A stretch of 64,000 nucleotides of DNA, taken from the IMG/VR virus record IMGVR_UViG_3300022213_000004; one strand, 5' to 3'. This stretch comes from a virus. The translations under genes and the position numbers were made by a program. Position 1 is the stretch's first letter; each line of letters opens with the position of its first letter. Positions 17,647 to 58,119 of this stretch are shown here, piece after piece. The notes under the pieces are model-generated. The model had not been told where the DNA came from, did no database searches, and saw only the letters and a program-made list of their open reading frames with translations.

Positions 17647-17696
17647 TTATTATGAAAGATAATATTCTTCTAAATAATAATAGTTGAAGAATATTA

Positions 17697-18155
17697 ATGC
17701 CAAAAAATCAATACAAAGATAAAACAACAAAAGAATATCAGCAGGAATGGAAAGCCAAAAATAGAGAAAAACAGAGGCAACTTCAAAGAGACCATTATAA
17801 TAAGAAAAAAGAGTATTTGCTTGAAAATGTTGGAAGTGTCTGTGTATCTTGTGGTTCAACATCAAATATTGAATTTGATCACATTAGACCAAGAACATCT
17901 TCCGAAAAAGAGAAGCAAACTCGTCTCAGAACTGATAACACGGGAGGAAACATAGTATGGAATAAAAGACCATCTGCTATGAGTTGGGAATGTATTAAAA
18001 AAGAAATTCCTGATTTACAACCTCTTTGTAGAGATTGTCACCGAAAAAAATCCAACGCACAACTTGCTGCTGCTTGGGAACTTTTTTGCTCCTTAACTCT
18101 TAAGGAACAAACCAAACTTACAAATTTACAATATGGAAAAAATGAAATTCTCTGA
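17697..18155 (+). CDS. HNH endonuclease with zinc-binding CxxC pairs
   Basis: CVSCG...EFDHI...LQPLCRDCH. Confidence 0.85.
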   Translation: MPKNQYKDKTTKEYQQEWKAKNREKQRQLQRDHYNKKKEYLLENVGSVCVSCGSTSNIEFDHIRPRTSSEKEKQTRLRTDNTGGNIVWNKRPSAMSWECIKKEIPDLQPLCRDCHRKKSNAQLAAAWELFCSLTLKEQTKLTNLQYGKNEIL

Positions 18156-18807
18156 CAAAACACTTACGCTTCTGAAGAATTTTTCTTCTATTAATCAAAG
18201 TATTCTATTCAAAAAAGGAAATCACTTGCGTAGTATTAGTGTTATGAAAAACATTCTTGCAGAAGCGACTATTGAAGAAGAACTGCCTAAGGATTTTGGT
18301 ATCTATGATTTGAACCAGTTTCTGAATGGTCTTAATCTTCATCAAAATGCTGAACTGGATTTTCGGAATGATGGTTATGTAGTTATTAAAGAAGGTCGGT
18401 CTCGTTCCAAATACTTCTTCGCAGATCCAAATGTAATCGTTACTCCTCCAGATAAATCCATCTCGCTTCCTTCTGAAGACGTTTGTTTCATCCTTGATAC
18501 CAAGGAACTTGATAAACTCCTTAAGGCTGCTGCTGTTTATCAACTTCCTGACCTGTCTGTGGTTGGTGAAGCAGGTGTGGTGAAACTGGTGGTTCGTGAT
18601 AAGAAGAATGATACATCGAACGATTTTTCTGTGGTAGTTGGTGAGACTGATGAAGTATTCACTTTTAACTTCAAGGTGGAGAACATCAAGATTATTCCTG
18701 GCAACTATGAGGTAGTGATCTCTTCTAAACTTTTGTCACGATTTAAGAATACTGGGTTTGACGTTACGTACTATATCGCGTTGGAACCGGACAGCACTTT
18801 TGGATGA
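18133..18807 (+). CDS. gp45: Sliding clamp
   Basis: LKNFSSINQSI, FGIYDLNQFL, YYIALE. Confidence 0.96.
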   Translation: MEKMKFSDKTLTLLKNFSSINQSILFKKGNHLRSISVMKNILAEATIEEELPKDFGIYDLNQFLNGLNLHQNAELDFRNDGYVVIKEGRSRSKYFFADPNVIVTPPDKSISLPSEDVCFILDTKELDKLLKAAAVYQLPDLSVVGEAGVVKLVVRDKKNDTSNDFSVVVGETDEVFTFNFKVENIKIIPGNYEVVISSKLLSRFKNTGFDVTYYIALEPDSTFG

Positions 18808-18836: not shown

Positions 18837-19352
18837 ATCAATATCTTCGTTACTTCTCCCTTTCCTGCTGAGAGTGCCATCTGCCTCCCAGACAAGCACG
18901 TTGTCAAGATGCCCTTAGAGTGCTGTCAGATGCTCTCTATCGTGGCATCAGACAAGTGGGGACACGGGTACGGCACCCTCCCTAAGGCAGATGGAACCCC
19001 CTACAAGACCGAGAAAGGAGCATTCCGCAATCATCCCTGCACCAAGTGGGCACTGGAGAGTATCCATAATGCCTATTGGTTAATCAAGTGGGGATTGAAC
19101 TTGTCTGATGAATACTGCCTGCGGTATAATAAAACTCACTCCTGTTATAAGACCCTTGTGGATGCATACTATTTGTTTCCCAAGGGTAAGATTACAGAAG
19201 TGACTCCATTTGCTCGTGCTATGCCTGAGGAATGGAAGTTTGACGATACTATTGACACATTTGAAGCATACAAACGATACATTGCATCCAAACCCTGGGT
19301 TGCTGATAATTATCTTCGTATGCCGTCAAGACGACCCTCTTGGATAATATAA
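18837..19352 (+). CDS. Pyrimidine-dimer DNA glycosylase / DenV-like family protein with apparent ATC start
   Basis: (I)NIFVTSPFPAESAICLPDKHVVKMPLECCQMLS and HPCTKWA motifs. Family-type N-terminus extends 24 codons upstream of the ATG at 18909. Confidence 0.8.
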   Translation: MNIFVTSPFPAESAICLPDKHVVKMPLECCQMLSIVASDKWGHGYGTLPKADGTPYKTEKGAFRNHPCTKWALESIHNAYWLIKWGLNLSDEYCLRYNKTHSCYKTLVDAYYLFPKGKITEVTPFARAMPEEWKFDDTIDTFEAYKRYIASKPWVADNYLRMPSRRPSWII

Positions 19353-19444
19353 ATAATGATGCCTGGTTTGTTCGCACTTTTCAGGTGGGAGAGTAGAAAT
19401 GCTCTCCCTTATAAATACTAATGCGAACAAACAACAGAGCAGAG
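19348..19444 (+). ncRNA. Candidate small structured RNA / leader cassette upstream of endonuclease (copy 1)
   Basis: TATAAATA, GCCTG-[GTTTGTTCGCA]-CTTTTCAGGT, GAAA-tetraloop hairpin, TATAAATA, TGCGAACAAAC. Covaries with the copy at 51044. Confidence 0.7.
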
Positions 19445-20023
19445 ATGTATTACACTTACGCCTATTTGCGTGAAGATGGAACTCCTTACTATATTGGTAA
19501 AGGTAAAGGAGACCGTGCATATAGAAAAGTTGGAAAACCTTGTGCTACTCCAAAAGATAAAAATAAAATAATACAACTCAAAACAAATCTTACAGAAGAA
19601 GAAGCATTCAATCACGAAAGATATATGATTTTTATCCTTGGTAGGAAAGATTTGGGAACTGGTATTTTATTAAACAAATCTGATGGTGGCGAAGGTAGAA
19701 GTGGATATGTTCCAACAGAAGAACTAAAAAGAAATCAAAGTAAGAGGATGAGTGGTGAAAATAATCCTATGTACGGTAAAAAAGGTGTTGAATGTCCTTG
19801 GTATGGGAGAAAACATAGTGAAGAAACAAAAAATAAAATTAGTAAATCTTTAACTGGCGAAAACCATAATTTTTATGGAAAAAAACATAAGCAAGAAACA
19901 AAAGAAAAAATGAGTGAAATTAAAAAAGGAGAAAAAAATAGTTTTTATGGAAGAAAACATACAGAAGAAAGTAGGAGAAAAATGAGGGAAGCAGCAAAAC
20001 GAAGAAAAGAAAAAAGTTCTTGA
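19445..20023 (+). CDS. GIY-YIG-like homing endonuclease with NUMOD3 repeats
   Basis: YTYAYLREDGTPYYIGKG; paralog of 14721..15353; alternative in-frame ATG at 19421. Confidence 0.85.
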   Translation: MYYTYAYLREDGTPYYIGKGKGDRAYRKVGKPCATPKDKNKIIQLKTNLTEEEAFNHERYMIFILGRKDLGTGILLNKSDGGEGRSGYVPTEELKRNQSKRMSGENNPMYGKKGVECPWYGRKHSEETKNKISKSLTGENHNFYGKKHKQETKEKMSEIKKGEKNSFYGRKHTEESRRKMREAAKRRKEKSS

Positions 20024-20686: not shown

Positions 20687-20903
20687 ATTTCTTTTAAAGG
20701 CACAATTAGTTTGGGATGAGTTTTGTGGAGGACTTAAACAAGAACCAACAGAGGATATGAAAGAAGCACTTTGCGAAAGTATCACAGAGATTATGGTTCA
20801 ACTTACGCAATATCCAAATCCGCAAGATTCATATTATTCTATTATTGATGTAAAGGAACTTTCTAAATTGAGAGATGAATTGGAGAAACTGGTGGATGAG
20901 TAA
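20676..20903 (+). CDS. Hypothetical protein
   Basis: 75-aa ORF with AAGGA RBS; begins MTSEFL. Confidence 0.6.
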   Translation: MTSEFLLKAQLVWDEFCGGLKQEPTEDMKEALCESITEIMVQLTQYPNPQDSYYSIIDVKELSKLRDELEKLVDE

Positions 20904-20962
20904 TCTTGAATAAGTGTAAATAACTCATTTACTAAATAGTATTATACTACGAGGTTTAGTAA

Positions 20963-21496
20963 ATGAGTTGCGTTTATCAAATAAGAAACAAAATAACAGG
21001 AGAAAATTACATAGGTTCTACTGAAAAGAATTATATGCTTAGGTTTGCTAAACATATAACTATGTGTAATAGTAATAAAATGGATTGTCCTAAACTTTAT
21101 GAAAATTTTTTAAAGTATGGGTATCATAATTTTACTATTGAAGTCGTAAAGTGGATACACGAAGACGAAGACCTCAAAAAAGTAGAACAAGAATATTGTG
21201 AATGGTTAAACCCTTCTTTAAATTCTTTATGGGGAACAAAACATACCAAAGATTCTATTGATAAAATGCGTAAGTCGCAAAGAGAATATTGGTCTAAAAA
21301 TTCTCATCCAAGAAAAGGAGTTCCTTTTACTGAGGAACATAAAAATAATCTTTCAAAATCTATGGGTAAAAAGTGTTATGTTGATGGAGTAGTTTATGAA
21401 TCTGTGAAAGAATGTGCTAAAATACTTGGTATCCATAGGGATACTGCAAGTTGGAGAATGAGAAGTAAATCATTTCCAAATTACTATTACCTTTGA
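20963..21496 (+). CDS. GIY-YIG homing endonuclease
   Basis: CVYQIRNKITGENYIGST...KYGYHNF; NUMOD-like C-terminus. Confidence 0.88.
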   Translation: MSCVYQIRNKITGENYIGSTEKNYMLRFAKHITMCNSNKMDCPKLYENFLKYGYHNFTIEVVKWIHEDEDLKKVEQEYCEWLNPSLNSLWGTKHTKDSIDKMRKSQREYWSKNSHPRKGVPFTEEHKNNLSKSMGKKCYVDGVVYESVKECAKILGIHRDTASWRMRSKSFPNYYYL

Positions 21497-49524: not shown

Positions 49525-49683
49525 ATGTCTAAAAATAATTTTAACAAAGATGAATTTAGAGTTAGAGTGCTAAAGTTAAAAAACGAACTATATCACGATT
49601 CAAATTGGTACTCAAATCCCAAGAACCTGGCGGATAAATACCTGAATAAGGTTCTTGAAATTATTGATGAGTACAGATATTAA
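49525..49683 (+). CDS. Small hypothetical protein (not in ORF track)
   Basis: MSKNNFNKDEFRVRVLKLKNEL...YLNKVLEIIDEYRY. Confidence 0.6.
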   Translation: MSKNNFNKDEFRVRVLKLKNELYHDSNWYSNPKNLADKYLNKVLEIIDEYRY

Positions 49684-50110
49684 CTATGAAAACCCTTGGA
49701 TCTATAATGGAAATCCTTTCACGAGTGCAGATATTGGAGACCATTATGGATTTGTCTATTTGATAGAAAATAAATTGAATGGTAGAAAATATATTGGCAG
49801 AAAATATCTTTGGCAGTTTAGAACCCCCAAAGGTAAAAAAAGAAAAGTAAAATCTGAGTCTAATTGGAAAGAATACTATGGGTCTTGTCCGGAACTTAAA
49901 GAAGACATTGATAAATTGGGCAGAGAAAATTTTAGTAGAACTATCTTATCATTACATAAAACAAAGGGCAAAACAAACTTTGGGGAGACCAGTCAACTCT
50001 TCAAGCACGATGTCCTCACAGAAGCCCTTGACAACGGAGACCCTGCGTTCTACAATAGCAACATCTTGGGACGGTTCTACCGAAAAGATTATTATGAACG
50101 CAACAACTGA
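49667..50110 (+). CDS. Conserved T4-like GIY-YIG-family nuclease
   Basis: GFVYLIENKLNGRKYIGRK...WKEYYGS...YNSNI. Confidence 0.8.
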   Translation: MSTDINYENPWIYNGNPFTSADIGDHYGFVYLIENKLNGRKYIGRKYLWQFRTPKGKKRKVKSESNWKEYYGSCPELKEDIDKLGRENFSRTILSLHKTKGKTNFGETSQLFKHDVLTEALDNGDPAFYNSNILGRFYRKDYYERNN

Positions 50111-50267: not shown

Positions 50268-50421
50268 CAGAATCTAAATAAAAACTTATGATGCTAAAAT
50301 CCTTGTTATGAGCAAGGTTTTTTGTTATGAGACTTTGAGTGACATTTAGAGCCGTGGAAAGTGCCCTTTGAAAAAAGGGTGTACCCCCTTTCTATACGGA
50401 TGTAGAGTTCAATTAATTTTA

Positions 50422-51048
50422 ATGCAAAACTGCTTTACTGTAGCCCTCTTGCCTCTGTTGGCAACGGTTACAACCACAACGGCAACACTGCCATCATCTG
50501 CTATTGCTCCTTCATATTCTATTATTAAGGAGTTTGAAACAGAGAAGACAGCAATCCGCGAGGTTGCTCCCGAAAAGCCAAAAGAGAAAAGGCTAATTTG
50601 TAAAGGGTGTAATGAACATGAAAATACTGCCCTGGCATTTTTCCAGGATCGCGGTATTAAAGACAGAAACGCCCTTGCTACCATCATGGGTAATATTCGT
50701 CAGGAATCAACTTTTGTTCCTAACATTTGTGAAGGTGGTAGCAGAACCTCATACTATAATTGTGGAAGAGGTTATGGTTTGATACAATTTACTTCTGCTT
50801 CTCGTTATTATGGACTGGGTGCTTTTGCTAAAAAAATAGGAGGTAATCCTTCTACTGCTGATACTCAACTTCGGTATATTACTACTGAACCACAATGGAA
50901 GAGTATTGAAAACAGAATGAGAGTTTCTGGAAAATCTATTGATAGGTATATGAATTATGCCTACGAATGGATTGGATGGGGACACCATGGAGCAAGAACA
51001 CAATATGCTTATGACTATGCTAAACGATTGGTTCTTGCTGATGTCTAA
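50422..51048 (+). CDS. Phage tail-lysozyme-family cell-wall hydrolase with N-terminal signal-like segment
   Basis: IMGNIRQES and GYGLIQFT motifs. Confidence 0.8.
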   Translation: MQNCFTVALLPLLATVTTTTATLPSSAIAPSYSIIKEFETEKTAIREVAPEKPKEKRLICKGCNEHENTALAFFQDRGIKDRNALATIMGNIRQESTFVPNICEGGSRTSYYNCGRGYGLIQFTSASRYYGLGAFAKKIGGNPSTADTQLRYITTEPQWKSIENRMRVSGKSIDRYMNYAYEWIGWGHHGARTQYAYDYAKRLVLADV

Positions 51049-51145
51049 ATAACTTTACCTGACTTGCTGACACTTTTCAGGTGAGATTGGAGTGCTTCGG
51101 CACTCCTTTCTTGTATAAATAGTAATGTCAGCAAGTTAGAGTAGT
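51044..51145 (+). ncRNA. Candidate small structured RNA / leader cassette upstream of endonuclease (copy 2)
   Basis: CTAAATA, ACCTG-[ACTTGCTGACA]-CTTTTCAGGT, cUUCGg hairpin, TATAAATA, TGTCAGCAAGT. Confidence 0.7.
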
Positions 51146-51796
51146 ATGAAACACTTTTATGTGTATTATTCCTATGAGGAATATGGAAGGGGATATATTG
51201 GAAAAAGAGAATGTAAATGTCTTCCAGAAGAAGATGTAAGTTATTTTGGAAGTTTCAAAGATAAAACTTTCAATCCAACTCAAAAAATAATATTAGAAAC
51301 TTTTGGGAGTGTTGAAGAAGCACTTGAAGCAGAATGTGCTCTCCACGATTTTTATGAAGTAGATAAAAATCCACACTTTGCTAATAGGGCAAAACAAACT
51401 TCTACTGGATTTTATTGTAATAAAGGTGCTGGTGAAGAAGCAAACAAGAAAAGAAGTGAGTTGATGAAAACAGAATACAATCCTATGAGTAATCCAAAAC
51501 TCAAAGAGAAAGCAAGAAAAAACTTGATTAGAACTTTGAGTAATCCAGAAATGAGAAAACTAAAAAGTAGAGTTGGAAAGAAAGCACACAATCGTCCAGA
51601 AGTAGTTGAGAACCATAGACAGGCAGCACTCAAATCTCATCAAAATCCAGAAACAAAAAGAAAACATATTGAGGCAAAACTTGGTGAGAAAAATCCTTGT
51701 TATGGTAAAAAGTGGATTACAAATGGAAATGAAAACAAATACATAAACTCTATTGATGAAGTTCCAAGTGGTTTTTGGTATGGTAGAGTTGTTTGA
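51146..51796 (+). CDS. GIY-YIG-like (Seg-type) homing endonuclease
   Basis: FYVYYSYEEYGRGYIGKR...YFGS...EALEAE...FAN; GKKWITNG. Confidence 0.8.
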   Translation: MKHFYVYYSYEEYGRGYIGKRECKCLPEEDVSYFGSFKDKTFNPTQKIILETFGSVEEALEAECALHDFYEVDKNPHFANRAKQTSTGFYCNKGAGEEANKKRSELMKTEYNPMSNPKLKEKARKNLIRTLSNPEMRKLKSRVGKKAHNRPEVVENHRQAALKSHQNPETKRKHIEAKLGEKNPCYGKKWITNGNENKYINSIDEVPSGFWYGRVV

Positions 51797-52681: not shown

Positions 52682-52753
52682 GGGAGATTAGCTCAGTGGT
52701 AGAGCAATGTGCTGATAACGCAGAGGTCGGTGGTTCAAATCCACCATTTCCCA
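52682..52753 (+). tRNA. tRNA-Ile(GAT)
   Basis: Cloverleaf, anticodon loop CTGATAA. Confidence 0.95.
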
Positions 52754-52792
52754 CTTGACAACCATTTCCAAGTCTGGTATGATTGTCTTATT

Positions 52793-52865
52793 GGGGCAGC
52801 AGCATGACGGATCATGCACCATCCTTCTAAGATGTAAGATGGGGGTTCAAATCCCTCCTGCCCTG
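52793..52865 (+). tRNA. tRNA-Arg(TCT)
   Basis: GGGGCAG/CTGCCCT acceptor, loop CTTCTAA, GTTCAAATC T arm; C instead of T at position 8. Confidence 0.85.
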
Positions 52866-52962
52866 TTACCACTTGCGCTGGAAAGATAAACCAGAATGCC
52901 GTGGTAAGATAGAGGGTAAGCCTCTGTTATATCCTTGAGGTATGTCACGCTTACTCCATCTA

Positions 52963-53035
52963 GCCCTTGTATTCCAACGGTAGAGAAGGTGGACTTAGAA
53001 TCCATACAGTGTAAGTTCGAATCTTACCAGGGGCA
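52963..53035 (+). tRNA. tRNA-Leu(TAG) with short variable loop
   Basis: GCCCTTG/CAGGGGC acceptor, GTGGA-CTTAGAA-TCCAT anticodon arm. Confidence 0.88.
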
Positions 53036-53054
53036 CTTAATTACTCTAGATTAT

Positions 53055-53543
53055 ATGGAATGGAAAAAACATCCAATCTTTGATAATTATGAAGCATCTT
53101 TAAATGGTGAAGTAAGAAATCAAAGTAAAAAGATAATAAAAACTAAACCCTTACAAACATATCATTCTGTTGTCACATTATGGAAGAATGGTAAAAGAAA
53201 ATTTATGGTAACTTCTAAATTTGTTTATGAGTGTTTTTATGGATTAATTCCAAAAGAATTAGTAGTAATGCACCACGATGAATATTTACCTGAATTTTGT
53301 ATTAACGCAACATTCAATTTATTTCTTGGCACTAGGTCTATAAATCAAAAAGATGCTTATCAAAAAGGAAGAATGTTGCCAACTAGAGGAGAAAAAAGTG
53401 GCAGGTCATATCTTTCACAAGAACAAGTTGACAATATAAGAAAAATGAGATATGATGGATGTACTTATGCACAAATAATAAGTGTATATAAAATACCAAA
53501 ATCAACCTTGTCAAATATAATTAATCACAAAACCTGGGCTTGA
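53055..53543 (+). CDS. HNH-type (NUMOD4-like) homing endonuclease within the tRNA cluster
   Basis: MEWKKHPIFDNYEASLNGEVRN...VMHHD...NLFLGT...N; C-terminal HTH. Confidence 0.8.
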   Translation: MEWKKHPIFDNYEASLNGEVRNQSKKIIKTKPLQTYHSVVTLWKNGKRKFMVTSKFVYECFYGLIPKELVVMHHDEYLPEFCINATFNLFLGTRSINQKDAYQKGRMLPTRGEKSGRSYLSQEQVDNIRKMRYDGCTYAQIISVYKIPKSTLSNIINHKTWA

Positions 53544-53579
53544 CATTATGCCCACCTCTTGGTAAAATAATGTTTATAT

Positions 53580-53651
53580 GCGGGTATCGTCTAACGGCTA
53601 AGATGATTGCCTTCCAAGCAATAGATGGGGTTTCGATTACCCCTACCCGCT
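53580..53651 (+). tRNA. tRNA-Gly(TCC)
   Basis: GCGGGTA/TACCCGC acceptor, ATTGC-CTTCCAA-GCAAT. Confidence 0.93.
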
Positions 53652-53691
53652 CTTGGTAGTCGTTAGGCACATAGTCTAAAAAGACGCCAAA

Positions 53692-53761
53692 GGAAGTTAA
53701 GTCAAAGAATCGAGACAAGCAGACAATGCCCTTTGAACTGGTGTAAGTCCAGTAACTTCCT
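53692..53761 (+). ncRNA. tRNA-like RNA with non-canonical anticodon arm
   Basis: GGAAGTT/AACTTCC acceptor, GTC/GAC D stem, ACTGG-TGTAAGT-CCAGT T arm. Confidence 0.6.
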
Positions 53762-53765
53762 TTAT

Positions 53766-53837
53766 TCCCCTGTGGCGCAGCGGTAGCGCGAGAAACTGTT
53801 AATTTCCAGGTCACAAGTTCGAATCTTGTCGGGGGAG
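53766..53837 (+). tRNA. tRNA-Asn(GTT)
   Basis: TCCCCTG/CGGGGGA acceptor, loop CTGTTAA. Confidence 0.93.
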
Positions 53838-53937
53838 TTGGAAGGACTTCGGTTCCTCCATAAGAATCGGGATCATCATATCCGATTCACTAAGACCTAA
53901 GTTCGCTTAGGCCAGGGGGATGGCCTCCCCTGCTAAT

Positions 53938-54010
53938 GGGCGATTAACTCAGCGGTCAGAGTGTCTGCTTTACACGCAGAAAGTCCACGGTTCAAATCCG
54001 TGATTGCCCA
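53938..54010 (+). tRNA. tRNA-Val(TAC)
   Basis: TCTGC-TTTACAC-GCAGA anticodon arm. Confidence 0.95.
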
Positions 54011-54038
54011 CTTGATAAATAAAAATAAAAAGAGTATA

Positions 54039-54473
54039 ATGGAAAAACTTTATAAACTACTAAGTGATGCTCAGTCATCGCTTTTTGTTTTATTCCATAA
54101 AACTTGGGCATTTCACTGGAATGTAGTTGGTGAAGATTTCACTCAACTCCACCAACTTTTTGGTGGTCAGTATGAAACTATGTTTGAGGAGATTGATCGT
54201 CTCTCAGAACATATGCGTTATCTAAATGTAAAACCTCTCAGCTCTCTTTCAAGAATGCTTGAGGTAACTCAAATCAAAGAGGCAGCAAGTTCAACGGGAG
54301 CAAAAGAAATGCTTCAGGAACTGCTTGAGAACAACGAAAAGTTTTGTGAGTTGATGGCAGAAATTTCGGAGGAATCCGAAGCACAAAAGCAATATGCAAC
54401 TGCTAATCTAGTTCAAGATTTAATGGAATCTCATGGTAAGTTTGTTTGGCAGTTAAGAGCGCACCTGCAATGA
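54039..54473 (+). CDS. dps: Dps-family ferritin-like DNA protection protein
   Basis: HWNVVG..F..LH.LF..QY.....IDRLSEH ferroxidase signature. Confidence 0.9.
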   Translation: MEKLYKLLSDAQSSLFVLFHKTWAFHWNVVGEDFTQLHQLFGGQYETMFEEIDRLSEHMRYLNVKPLSSLSRMLEVTQIKEAASSTGAKEMLQELLENNEKFCELMAEISEESEAQKQYATANLVQDLMESHGKFVWQLRAHLQ

Positions 54474-54488
54474 TTAGGATGAAGAACA

Positions 54489-54740
54489 ATGATTTCAATA
54501 AGATGTAAAGATTGTAATAAAGAGTTATTTGGGCACCCATCAAAAACAGTAACTTGTGGTTGTCCAAATATGGCAACAATTCGTGGAGATAAGATTTCAG
54601 CACTTGACTTATCTCGTGTTGTTATGTTAAACTCTATTCAGAAAGAACAAAAATCAAATGTTCTGACTTCACAAGATCTTGCTTTTCAAGAAGCAAGACG
54701 CCAACGCAAAGTAAAGCGTTTGGATTTTGAGGTCCGTTGA
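54489..54740 (+). CDS. Small zinc-ribbon protein conserved in cyanophages
   Basis: CKDC...CGCPN. Confidence 0.7.
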   Translation: MISIRCKDCNKELFGHPSKTVTCGCPNMATIRGDKISALDLSRVVMLNSIQKEQKSNVLTSQDLAFQEARRQRKVKRLDFEVR

Positions 54741-54749
54741 GGACTTTTT

Positions 54750-54836
54750 GGAAGGTCAATCCGATTGGCGACGGAACCGCTCTTGAAAAGCGTTGAGGTG
54801 TTAAAGCCCTTGGGAGTTCGACTCTCCCACCTTCCG
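54750..54836 (+). tRNA. tRNA-Ser(TGA)
   Basis: GGAAGGT/ACCTTCC acceptor, loop CTTGAAA, long variable arm. Confidence 0.95.
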
Positions 54837-54909
54837 TTTTTATATCAATATATTATAATCCTTAAGAAATGATATAATGTCTACATATTAAATATATCAA
54901 AATACAAAA

Positions 54910-55125
54910 ATGACAGGGTTTTATCTTCTAATGCTGACATTTATTGCATTAGTAGTATACGCGGGTTATGATGAAACCATGAGACTTTTTCAATATGCAG
55001 ACCTACAAGTTAGGTATGCTGTAGTAAGAGTTCAGATGAAATGGATGGGTTGGAACCTTAAAAGACAACTGATTAAGGATACAACTAATTTTGAAAAGTT
55101 CCTTAAGGAGTACACGGATGACTGA
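54910..55125 (+). CDS. Small membrane-anchored protein
   Basis: Hydrophobic N-terminal helix. Confidence 0.65.
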   Translation: MTGFYLLMLTFIALVVYAGYDETMRLFQYADLQVRYAVVRVQMKWMGWNLKRQLIKDTTNFEKFLKEYTDD

Positions 55126-55366
55126 TAAAGAGATGTCCGATCTTTCACTGGAAAGAAAGGAATGCCCAAAGTGTGGTGCTGTTTGGATTAACGGAGAGCA
55201 CTACTGGTCTGGAACAGGAAAAAAAGGAAATGAATTAGATCTTGCTGGATTAGTTTGTAATAAACATGGAGATGATACTTGTATTAACTCAAGTAGAGGA
55301 AAAGAAGGTGGTGTTACTTGGGAAAAGAGATTGACTGAACTGGAACAAGATCATCCAAACCAATGA
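55118..55366 (+). CDS. Small Cys-rich protein conserved in cyanophages
   Basis: CPKCGAVWINGEHYWSGTG...DLAGLVC; AAGGAG RBS. Confidence 0.7.
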   Translation: MTDKEMSDLSLERKECPKCGAVWINGEHYWSGTGKKGNELDLAGLVCNKHGDDTCINSSRGKEGGVTWEKRLTELEQDHPNQ

Positions 55367-55566
55367 TGCACGAACAAGAAGAGTTTATTACACGCTCAGA
55401 AGTTCAGGAGATGATTGATGCAGCAATACGACAACACAACCGTAATGCTTCTATCATTAGTATGTGCGTCGGTTGGGTGGTTCTTGCTTTATTTGCTGAA
55501 GGACTTTTGAGACTTGTAGGAGTTATTCCTCCATTACTTCCATGGCTCAAAATCACTCTGAACTAA
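55363..55566 (+). CDS. Small membrane protein
   Basis: HNRNASIISMCVGWVVLALFAEGLLRL. Confidence 0.7.
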   Translation: MMHEQEEFITRSEVQEMIDAAIRQHNRNASIISMCVGWVVLALFAEGLLRLVGVIPPLLPWLKITLN

Positions 55567-55832
55567 TATTCTTAGTTCCTTGGTTTGTTCTTGTGGTGAT
55601 TGCACTGACAATGTTTGTGCAAGGTTGGATGATTATGAATGCTCGTCATGGGTATTCAAAAAGTCCAAAAGTAAAACATCCAGAATTAAACGACGTTAAA
55701 GCAGGAGATCCTCTACTAGTGGTTAGATTCACCGAAGAAGATTTGCAAGAATTGCAACAGAAAATTTTACAACAAAAAATGAATGAACTTTTTGAAGAAC
55801 CATCAACTTATGAGGACGAGGAAGATGAGTAA
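55542..55832 (+). CDS. Membrane protein, DUF2973-like
   Basis: TM helix followed by KHPEL......LLVVRF. Confidence 0.6.
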   Translation: MAQNHSELIFLVPWFVLVVIALTMFVQGWMIMNARHGYSKSPKVKHPELNDVKAGDPLLVVRFTEEDLQELQQKILQQKMNELFEEPSTYEDEEDE

Positions 55833-55900
55833 AACACTTTTGGCACTAACACTCATTTATGGGTCAACTATTGGTCTGTGGATTTATTGGGGATTGACTC

Positions 55901-56101
55901 ATGCATATCCCCAATAAACAGAAGTATCACTTTGCAATGTCTGCTTTTGTAAGAATGCACGGATACGCTATTATGAACAATATAGATATTAAACAGTTTT
56001 GTGAAGAATGGTCTACTTGGGAAGTTACTGCTCCGTTACAGGGACTTGACGAAGTGGACCAATACATGTATTATGAATATAAGAACTGGAGGGGAAGATG
56101 A
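55901..56101 (+). CDS. Small hypothetical protein
   Basis: 66-aa ORF ending YYEYKNWRGR. Confidence 0.6.
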   Translation: MHIPNKQKYHFAMSAFVRMHGYAIMNNIDIKQFCEEWSTWEVTAPLQGLDEVDQYMYYEYKNWRGR

Positions 56102-56214
56102 TTTTTCAACTAGTTGAAGCACTAGCATCAAATCCTTTCTTTCTTTTTCTTTGTGGATGTGGGTTGACAGTCGTACCATTTGCTGGTATTATGTTTATAC
56201 ACAGAAACAAATAA

Positions 56215-56290
56215 CGGAGTATCGCCTAACTTGGTCATGGCACCTGCTTTGGGAGCAGGAATAATTTCGGTTCAAATCCGAATACTCCGA
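56215..56290 (+). tRNA. tRNA-Pro(TGG)
   Basis: CGGAGTA/TACTCCG acceptor, CCTGC-TTTGGGA-GCAGG. Confidence 0.93.
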
Positions 56291-56307
56291 TCATAAAACT
56301 TTACTTT

Positions 56308-56547
56308 ATGAAAATGTATCCAGAACATCCAGAACATCCAGAACTTCAGACATTTACAGTAGAAGAGTTTCAAGCAGATTTTGATAACTTAATGAAAAGA
56401 GTAGAAAATGGAGAGTCTTTTATTATTAAAGATGGAGGAAGAAGTGCAGTGATAGTTCCATATAATGAAACTATAAAGTATGCGATAGATTCAGTTGTGG
56501 ACGACGATGTGATACGAATACACACCGACCACGAAGAAGGTTCGTGA
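56308..56547 (+). CDS. Phd/YefM antitoxin-like protein
   Basis: TVEEFQADFDNLMKRVENGESFIIKDGGRSAVIVPY matches the Phd/YefM pattern. Confidence 0.65.
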   Translation: MKMYPEHPEHPELQTFTVEEFQADFDNLMKRVENGESFIIKDGGRSAVIVPYNETIKYAIDSVVDDDVIRIHTDHEEGS

Positions 56548-56554
56548 TTTTTGT

Positions 56555-56645
56555 GGGGGCATAGTTCAACGGTAGAACAGCGGTCTTATACTCCGTATTA
56601 GCGCCAGATTAGCGCGAGGTCTTGGTTCGAATCCAAGTGTCCCTA
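56555..56645 (+). tRNA. Atypical tRNA with TAT anticodon and extra hairpin in the variable region
   Basis: GGGGGCA/TGTCCCT acceptor, loop CTTATAC, GCGC-CAGATTA-GCGC insert, canonical T arm. Confidence 0.8.
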
Positions 56646-56665
56646 TTCCACTTAATGTGGATTTT

Positions 56666-56736
56666 GGGCGGGTACTTTAATGGTAAAAGAGGCTCCTTAT
56701 AAGGGCTCATTCGGGGTTCAATTCCCCGTCCGCCTA
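56666..56736 (+). tRNA. tRNA-Ile(TAT)
   Basis: GGGCGGG/TCCGCCT acceptor, GGCTC-CTTATAA-GGGCT. Confidence 0.88.
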
Positions 56737-57984: not shown

Positions 57985-58112
57985 AACTTATACTGGTGGA
58001 GTCAAAATGACCCTATTATGAGTTTATTGCCTCTCTCAAGGGCAATTGGTGCGGATGGGACTCTCTCCCGCCTGGTTTCCAATTTCCAGTCAAAGAATTG
58101 GTGGCGAGCCTG
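57967..58112 (+). ncRNA. Structured RNA upstream of gmd, wcaG/manA-motif-like
   Basis: GC-rich multi-hairpin intergenic region with TGGTG and TGGCG elements ahead of a nucleotide-sugar gene, as described for cyanophage wcaG RNAs; family not verified. Confidence 0.55.
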
Positions 58113-58119
58113 AATTTTC

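Follow-up and report, generated by a model that had tools for sequence, protein, structure and literature searches.

The closest described relatives of the structure reported here are the translational masks of homing endonuclease genes. The ribosome-binding sites of I-TevI, I-TevII, I-TevIII, segB and Aeh1 mobE are sequestered when the RNA stems from early and middle read-through, and the position of the late promoter prevents late RNA from forming the masking helix; T4 e, soc and 49 are further cases of a late promoter within a hairpin (PMC2988022). The box TATAAATA is the late-promoter consensus of T4 and of cyanophages (PMC2984593, PMC2988022). A second precedent comes from cyanophage-like metagenomic 'fractured gene' loci, in which, according to Dassa et al. 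(2009; PMC2677866), TATAAATA is embedded in 5' UTR hairpins of free-standing endonucleases, together with two conserved motifs that are complementary to each other; the hairpin persists in one HEG-less allele.

The window analysed here, 64,000 nucleotides of the IMG/VR virus record IMGVR_UViG_3300022213_000004, derives from a T4-like cyanophage whose nearest records, in a megablast search of a phage collection, are freshwater Synechococcus phages. It contains two copies of a cassette of about 100 nt, at 19348-19444 and 51044-51145 on the + strand, with the same order of parts and each preceding a homing-endonuclease-like gene. Gene 1 (19445..20023, + strand) matches Pfam NUMOD3 (E 7e-32) and PHROG 314, 'homing endonuclease' (E 7e-16), and its product has an N-terminus of the form Y-x-Y...YYIGKG and three NUMOD3 motifs. 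Gene 2 (51146..51796, + strand) matches PHROG 314 (E 4.7e-12) and, weakly, NUMOD3; the two are 26-29% identical, over parts of their length only. Copy 1 is set among replication-module genes and follows a gene that resembles those of pyrimidine-dimer glycosylases (18909..19352, + strand; Pfam Pyr_excise, E 1.8e-7), itself preceded by an ORF at 18133-18807 that, from a reading of its sequence, resembles the sliding clamp. Copy 2 follows a phage tail lysozyme gene (50368..51048, + strand; Pfam Phage_lysozyme2, E 1.2e-14). Elsewhere the window encodes a wcaG RNA (58018-58115; 103.5 bits to Rfam RF01761) and nine tRNA genes clustered at 52682-56736.

Copy 1 begins with a first promoter-like box, P1, which reads TATAAATA (19348-19355), is predicted to act as a promoter and contains the stop codon of the upstream ORF (TAA, 19350-19352). 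Five bases separate P1 from G-CCTG (19361-19365), and a start of the T4 type would fall on G19361. The variable segment, or 5' arm, GTTTGTTCGCA (19366-19376) is followed by CTTTTCAGGTG (19377-19387) and by H2, a hairpin of 9 bp around a GAAA loop (19387-19408), whose tail is UUAUAAAUA. The second box, P2, again matches the late-promoter consensus TATAAATA (19410-19417; PMC2984593, PMC2988022), is followed by CTAA and has its predicted start at G19423. The 3' arm TGCGAACAAAC (19422-19432) is separated from the ATG at 19445 by AACAGAGCAGAG, and the Shine-Dalgarno (SD) sequence AGAG lies at 19436-19439. Copy 2 consists of a P1 with the non-consensus box TCTAAATA (51044-51051), within which the lysozyme gene ends, A-CCTG (51057-51061), the 5' arm ACTTGCTGACA (51062-51072), CTTTTCAGGTG (51073-51083), an H2 with a UUCG loop and the tail UUUCUUGU (51083-51112; TTTCTTGT follows the UUCG hairpin), P2 with TATAAATA (51114-51121) followed by GTAA, and the 3' arm TGTCAGCAAGT (51126-51136), after which UAG-A-GUAG extends over the SD upstream of the ATG at 51146. 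All of these parts lie on the + strand. An earlier note on this DNA had described the part order, the exact complementarity of the two 11-nt segments in both copies and the compensation of all differences between the copies (5 of 11 positions); each of these was borne out by the sequence.

Neither copy matched an Rfam family at gathering scores, in keeping with the earlier note, which had not recognised a described family, and a search with copy 1 only (19300-19500) at E values up to 10 returned matches of 9-11 bits, the level expected by chance. Megablast against the phage collection revealed no close annotated relative at the cassettes, and the sole match in a distant blastn search was the cultured phage S-SRM01. 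When the window was searched with the full covariance model and all filters off, no further copies besides the two were found; copy 2 scored 104.9 bits, and the same model also gave scores to the reverse strands of both copies (18-23 bits) and to a simple hairpin at 20901-20985. Neither 11-nt arm has a second exact match within the window.

The size of the family was estimated in two ways. When IMG/VR viral contigs were scanned for the pattern CCTG-N11-CTTTTCAGGTG, 120 loci emerged, at 78 of which the reverse complement of the locus's own N11 occurs within 150 nt downstream; the match between segment and leader is not due to chance. To avoid bias from the constant part, a second set was assembled from homologues of both nucleases that have any 11-bp inverted repeat around a TAAATA box. 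The result was 109 distinct cassettes with an upstream box, among which the 5' arm takes 38 different forms and the arms combine in 48 pairs. By the covariance model, the cassette precedes most of 80 gene 1 homologues and occurs in one to five copies in each of five large phage contigs; S-SRM01 has six, such that the number per genome ranges from one to six. The constant CTTTTCAGGTG, which the earlier note had called invariant, is so within a subfamily and varies across divergent members. Among the genes downstream are members of two families that are GIY-YIG-like and of one that is HNH-like (MNYLK...), as well as TnpB, the last confirmed by matches to the OrfB_IS605 and TNB domains.

A constant scaffold that carries a variable segment, with TnpB genes behind some of the cassettes, brings to mind a guide or cofactor RNA bound by the adjacent nuclease in the manner of CRISPR or OMEGA systems. 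The distribution of the cassette speaks against such a role: it is shared by GIY-YIG-like, HNH-like and TnpB genes, which makes a guide for the nuclease unlikely, and the GIY-YIG-like and HNH-like enzymes recognise DNA through protein. TnpB guide RNAs come from the 3' end of the element, whereas the cassette lies upstream of the TnpB genes. In addition, the only match of each segment in the window is its own leader. We consider a guide function very improbable.

The complementarity of the arms is part of a longer helix. Read-through RNA folds with -38.1 kcal/mol (z -5.8) for copy 1 and -41.9 kcal/mol (z -4.8) for copy 2, and in both minimum free energy structures CCUG, beyond the 11-nt arm, pairs with CAG-A-G or UAG-A-G over the SD AGAG. 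In general form, U-R-CCUG pairs with CAG-A-G-Y-A or UAG-A-G-Y-A directly 3' of the 3' arm; the SD AGAG lies 5 nt before the AUG and the helix ends 4-6 nt from it. In copy 1 the 5' strand, identified from the read-through fold and from covariation, comprises the anti-SD element U-G-CCUG and the arm GTTTGTTCGCA (19360-19376, + strand), and the 3' strand, supported by the fold and by pair counts, comprises TGCGAACAAAC, an AA bulge and CAG-A-GCA (19422-19441, + strand), which covers the SD. The same fold is obtained for all 109 P1-flagged cassettes, with an extension of 2-6 bp into the leader in 107; in 22 of the 109 the extension is 3 bp only. Covariation was assessed on a protein-anchored alignment of 58 distinct rows (A2), which had been fitted to the long helix and not to the alternative stem discussed below. 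On A2, 94.8% of the long-helix positions are paired, compared with 27-52% in slid registers, and 16 of 17 pairs have changed on both sides; the extension helix is 88.5% paired, with two-sided changes in 7/7 pairs. On alignment A1 the long helix is 90% paired, versus 31-44% when slid. The compensation that the earlier note had seen between the two copies thus extends to the wider family, and scaffold and compensated segment together constitute a real, conserved + strand RNA feature. Its view that the helix was confined to the 11-nt segment at the transcription start had to be abandoned, because the helix continues into the SD region.

That the structure acts as RNA is indicated by the mismatches tolerated in the 48 distinct arm pairs, which contain 22 G.U and three A.C combinations, a bias unexpected of DNA or of the opposite strand. 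This bears on the suggestion that the inverted repeat serves as DNA, as a cruciform, a recombination site or a site of nuclease cleavage or homing. In favour of it, a promoter is enclosed by the repeats, these move together with mobile nuclease genes, and the 3' arm was involved in a deletion. The 'solo' cassette L041, present together with six identical contigs, is a deletion derivative in which ~50 nt from the end of the nuclease gene survive, as does the next gene's late promoter; comparison with L053 shows that the deletion joined the cassette's 3' arm to a 12-nt stretch similar to it, located close to the end of the nuclease gene, and so gave rise to an HEG-less allele. At this locus the nuclease stop codon lies within the next gene's late promoter, TTTATAAATAA. 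Against a role as DNA stand, besides the G.U bias, the tracking of the SD by the helix and the occurrence of one cassette with four unrelated nuclease families of different specificities, and we regard this explanation as very improbable.

The CCUG element, here called X, has a second partner. In short RNA, X pairs with the CAGG of the constant part (X') to form the stem H1, which in copy 1 joins G-CCUG-G to U-CAGG-U (19361-19386, + strand; short-RNA fold and pair counts) around a loop made up of most of the 11-nt arm (19366-19376) and the U-rich linker CUUUU, and in copy 2 spans 51057-51082 (+ strand) with the arm ACTTGCTGACA. On A2, H1 is 89% paired, compared with 20-41% in slid registers, and four of its six pairs have changed on both sides; the stem proposed in the earlier note, closed by CCUG and CAGG and holding the segment in its loop, is therefore real. 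In divergent members the set CCUG / CAGG / CAG is replaced by CCUUAA / UUAAGG / UUAAG, with all three changing together, and GCUUA / UAAGC / AAAGC and GCUCU / AGAGU / AGA-AGC are among the further sets that do so. From the covariation of both H1 and the long helix it follows that X has two mutually exclusive partners; to judge from the sequences, its partner is X' in RNA that lacks the 3' strand, and the SD flank, X'', in RNA that contains it. The three-way covariation of X with X' or X'' is an unusually clean natural case of exclusive RNA pairings. A different leader design precedes some nuclease 1 homologues (L137-L143), in which a GGGG...CCCC hairpin encloses the 5' arm GGTAGGGGTAT, the CCUG/CAGG stem is absent, and TATAAATA and the complementary arm come after the hairpin.

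P2 lies between the strands of the long helix in both copies and reads TATAAATA in 99 of the 109 cassettes. Its predicted +1 falls on or close to the second base of the 3' arm, and RNA that begins at this predicted position is unstructured when folded. The cassette therefore probably acts in cis as a translational mask like those of T4, with the late promoter inside the hairpin, in the form of a portable module of ~100 nt. RNA that arrives from upstream, by read-through or by a start at P1, would contain the 5' strand, whose U-R-CCUG and private arm would pair with the 3' strand, the reverse-complement arm followed by YAG-A-G-Y-A, in a helix of 14-17 bp. The helix would bury the SD AGAG just 5' of the AUG, and the nuclease would not be translated. 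Late in infection, P2 would start an RNA at roughly its predicted +1; the leader of this RNA, devoid of the 5' strand, would be unstructured and the nuclease would be made. H2 would compact the loop of 55-70 nt, and in most families it resembles a terminator of the upstream unit. We infer the time course and the effect on translation from the T4 and Aeh1 precedent.

Two more nuclease genes in the window carry the mask in its simple form. An HNH gene at 17697 is preceded by an 11-bp hairpin (at about 17660-17697, in the stretch 17655-17712; z -3.9), and a GIY-YIG gene at 20963 with an I-TevI-like DNA-binding domain by a 22-bp hairpin (at about 20916-20977, in the stretch 20915-20985; z -4.9); the late box, TCTAAATA or ACTAAATA, is in the 5' arm or the loop, while the AUG is either reached by the 3' arm or part of it. 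At 49620-49690 a 9-bp hairpin surrounds a GATAAATA box just upstream of a GIY-YIG-like ORF (49655-50110), the start region of which is not obviously covered. The earlier note had set the cassette apart from T4 in that its target was said to be the transcription start rather than the ribosome-binding site; with the SD AGAG covered by the helix, P2 inside it and simple masks in the same window, this contrast does not hold.

As in the T-even and Aeh1 masks, a helix is predicted to bury the ribosome-binding site on upstream transcripts, TATAAATA is so placed that late transcripts would lack the 5' strand, and the genes concerned are selfish nucleases. Unlike in those masks, the strands of the cassette are 45-60 nt apart with a strong hairpin between them, the 5' strand has a second covarying partner in H1, a second late-promoter-like box is situated just upstream, and the cassette is found nearly unchanged in several nuclease families with an 11-nt arm private to each copy. 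The loci of Dassa et al. (2009), likened here by description only, share the host group, the gene class, the embedded late promoter, the pairing motifs and an HEG-less allele in which the hairpin is kept, so that the earlier note's impression of something undescribed is too strong as regards these features; the upstream promoter, the alternative stem and an RNA of its own, which are present or proposed in the cassette, are not mentioned in that paper (PMC2677866). A search of the literature for a dual-promoter or antisense version of the mask found none. The cis mask does not account for everything. A plain mask needs neither H1 nor P1, and the cis model consequently assigns no role to these two conserved features. 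It also counts against masking that AGAG is a weak SD and that in some families the helix includes only part of it.

P1 was examined in the 109 cassettes of the box-selected set, in 105 of which it reads [A/C]TAAATA; the conserved promoter-like box that the earlier note had seen upstream of the two copies is thus a property of the family. The distance from P1 to H1 is fixed (N5 in all 109 P1-flagged cassettes), and in every one of them the predicted P1 transcript enters H1 with its first or second base. In the family of copy 1, ATAAATA forms a conserved island amid variable flanks, and the upstream stop codon moves from -3 to +4 nt relative to P1 among close relatives. This movement rules out a coupling of the cassette to the terminating ribosome of the upstream gene. 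A small ORF starting at ATGATG after P1 in copy 1 was likewise discarded, as the corresponding position is TTA or ATA in copy 2 and in many relatives. The published late-promoter consensus is NATAAATA, from which CTAAATA and NCTAAATA, the form of P1 in 38/109 cassettes, deviate (PMC2984593). The P1 box of copy 2, TCTAAATA, occurs eight times on the + strand of the window (5949, 17669, 23772, 32200, 37630, 42920, 50273 and 51044) and not at all on the - strand, mostly just 5' of genes; it may represent a second promoter class or a weak late-promoter variant of this phage. Many of these sites immediately follow a T-run and have a start codon 10-40 nt further downstream.

H2 is followed by at least five T in 8 nt in 68/109 cassettes, in most arm families. 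The terminator-like nature ascribed to it in the earlier note applies to copy 2, where a terminator scan identified a site at 51089-51106, and not to copy 1, for which the consensus scan gave no terminator and in whose arm family the tail has 3/8 T. P1, the 5'-terminal H1 and the terminator-like H2 together look like a small transcription unit. This leads to a further reading, in which P1 would drive a discrete RNA of ~50-60 nt consisting of H1 and H2 that pairs in trans with the P2 mRNA, in addition to the cis mask or in place of it. We hold the existence of such an RNA to be possible but doubtful. The arm displayed in the loop, together with the anti-SD element, would pair with the 5' end and SD of the P2 mRNA and limit late synthesis of the nuclease, a function that we put forward as tentatively as the RNA itself. 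Cis mask and trans-acting small RNA are not mutually exclusive.

In support of a small RNA, P1 is maintained at a fixed distance from H1 independently of where the upstream gene stops, the covarying H1 occupies the 5' end of all 109 predicted P1 transcripts, the tail of H2 is U-rich in 68/109 cassettes with copy 2 passing the terminator scan, and TCTAAATA is confined in the window to the + strand, mostly just upstream of genes. An intrinsic terminator is located directly before P1 in three contexts, so that little upstream read-through would reach the mask there, a point against the cis model, and yet these three cassettes retain P1. Predicted trans pairing between cognate partners amounts to -12.6 to -16 kcal/mol, and in four genomes all non-cognate combinations are weaker; however, the best cognate pairing follows from the cis helix by construction. 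Further evidence points away from a small RNA. Copy 1 and its family do not have a U-tract after H2, so that a P1 RNA would there mostly read through and simply be masked in cis. Neither CTAAATA nor NCTAAATA conforms to NATAAATA, the published consensus (PMC2984593), and cassette L045 has lost P1. Orphan 5' halves were not found in the window or in five genomes; across the window and six large phage genomes each 5' half is accompanied by its own 3' half, which also supports the cis mask.

Antisense control of selfish or toxic genes is familiar from IS10 RNA-OUT/RNA-IN and from type I toxin-antitoxin systems, in which an antisense stem-loop RNA pairs with the mRNA 5' end or ribosome-binding site. 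A P1 RNA, if it exists, would resemble them in that a loop pairs with the 5' end and the ribosome-binding site of the mRNA of such a gene; unlike them, the putative regulator of the cassette is encoded in tandem on the same strand and not antisense to its target. A likeness also exists to the PeSLs, which Arbiol et al. reportedly described in 2010 as mobile regulatory cassettes of T4-type phages with early promoters and modular shuffling. Like the cassette, they are short modules of promoter and stem-loop repeated around the genome; unlike in the cassette, their promoters are early ones, and they are not known to serve as masks that pair with a leader downstream.

A 243-kb IMG/VR phage genome with terminal repeats contains four paralogous TnpB genes of 398 aa (L283, L285, L289, L293). 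Each encodes OrfB_IS605, Cas12f1-like TNB and HTH domains and is preceded by its own cassette, in which CCUG and CUUUUCAGG are constant and the compensated arm is private to each paralogue. The homology between the paralogues starts ~10 nt before the P1 box, which makes the box part of the mobile unit. The genes are 85-89% identical and the cassettes 69-84%, and the arms could therefore drift at a roughly neutral rate. The sequences fit a neutral drift of the 11-nt arms with compensation under a constrained scaffold; diversifying selection on the arm, which was also considered, is not demonstrated by identities that suit a roughly neutral rate. A bolder proposal is that each GIY-YIG-like, HNH-like or TnpB gene has its own programmable antisense regulator, a P1-driven RNA of ~55 nt with a private 11-nt address, that it acts in trans like the multicopy inhibition of IS10 and that paralogues diversify their addresses and so escape each other's repressors. 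We consider this unlikely on balance, somewhat more so than the small RNA as such, and mention it as a speculation.

The known part of the cassette is the translational mask of I-TevI, segB and Aeh1 mobE. What seems new beyond it is the alternative pairing of X with X', the late-promoter-like box fixed upstream, and the sharing of one element by genes of the GIY-YIG-like, HNH-like and TnpB types. As passengers, homing endonucleases and TnpB nucleases may be toxic to the phage that carries them, and how they are silenced is known from only a handful of T-even cases. In the cassette the logic of the mask has become a standard exchangeable part, with one scaffold serving at least three or four nuclease families, and it is directly amenable to experiment because the cultured phage S-SRM01 carries six copies. 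If P1 does make a small RNA, selfish genes would here be under antisense control encoded in tandem, and the cassette would offer a compact design, taken from nature, for controlling translation orthogonally.
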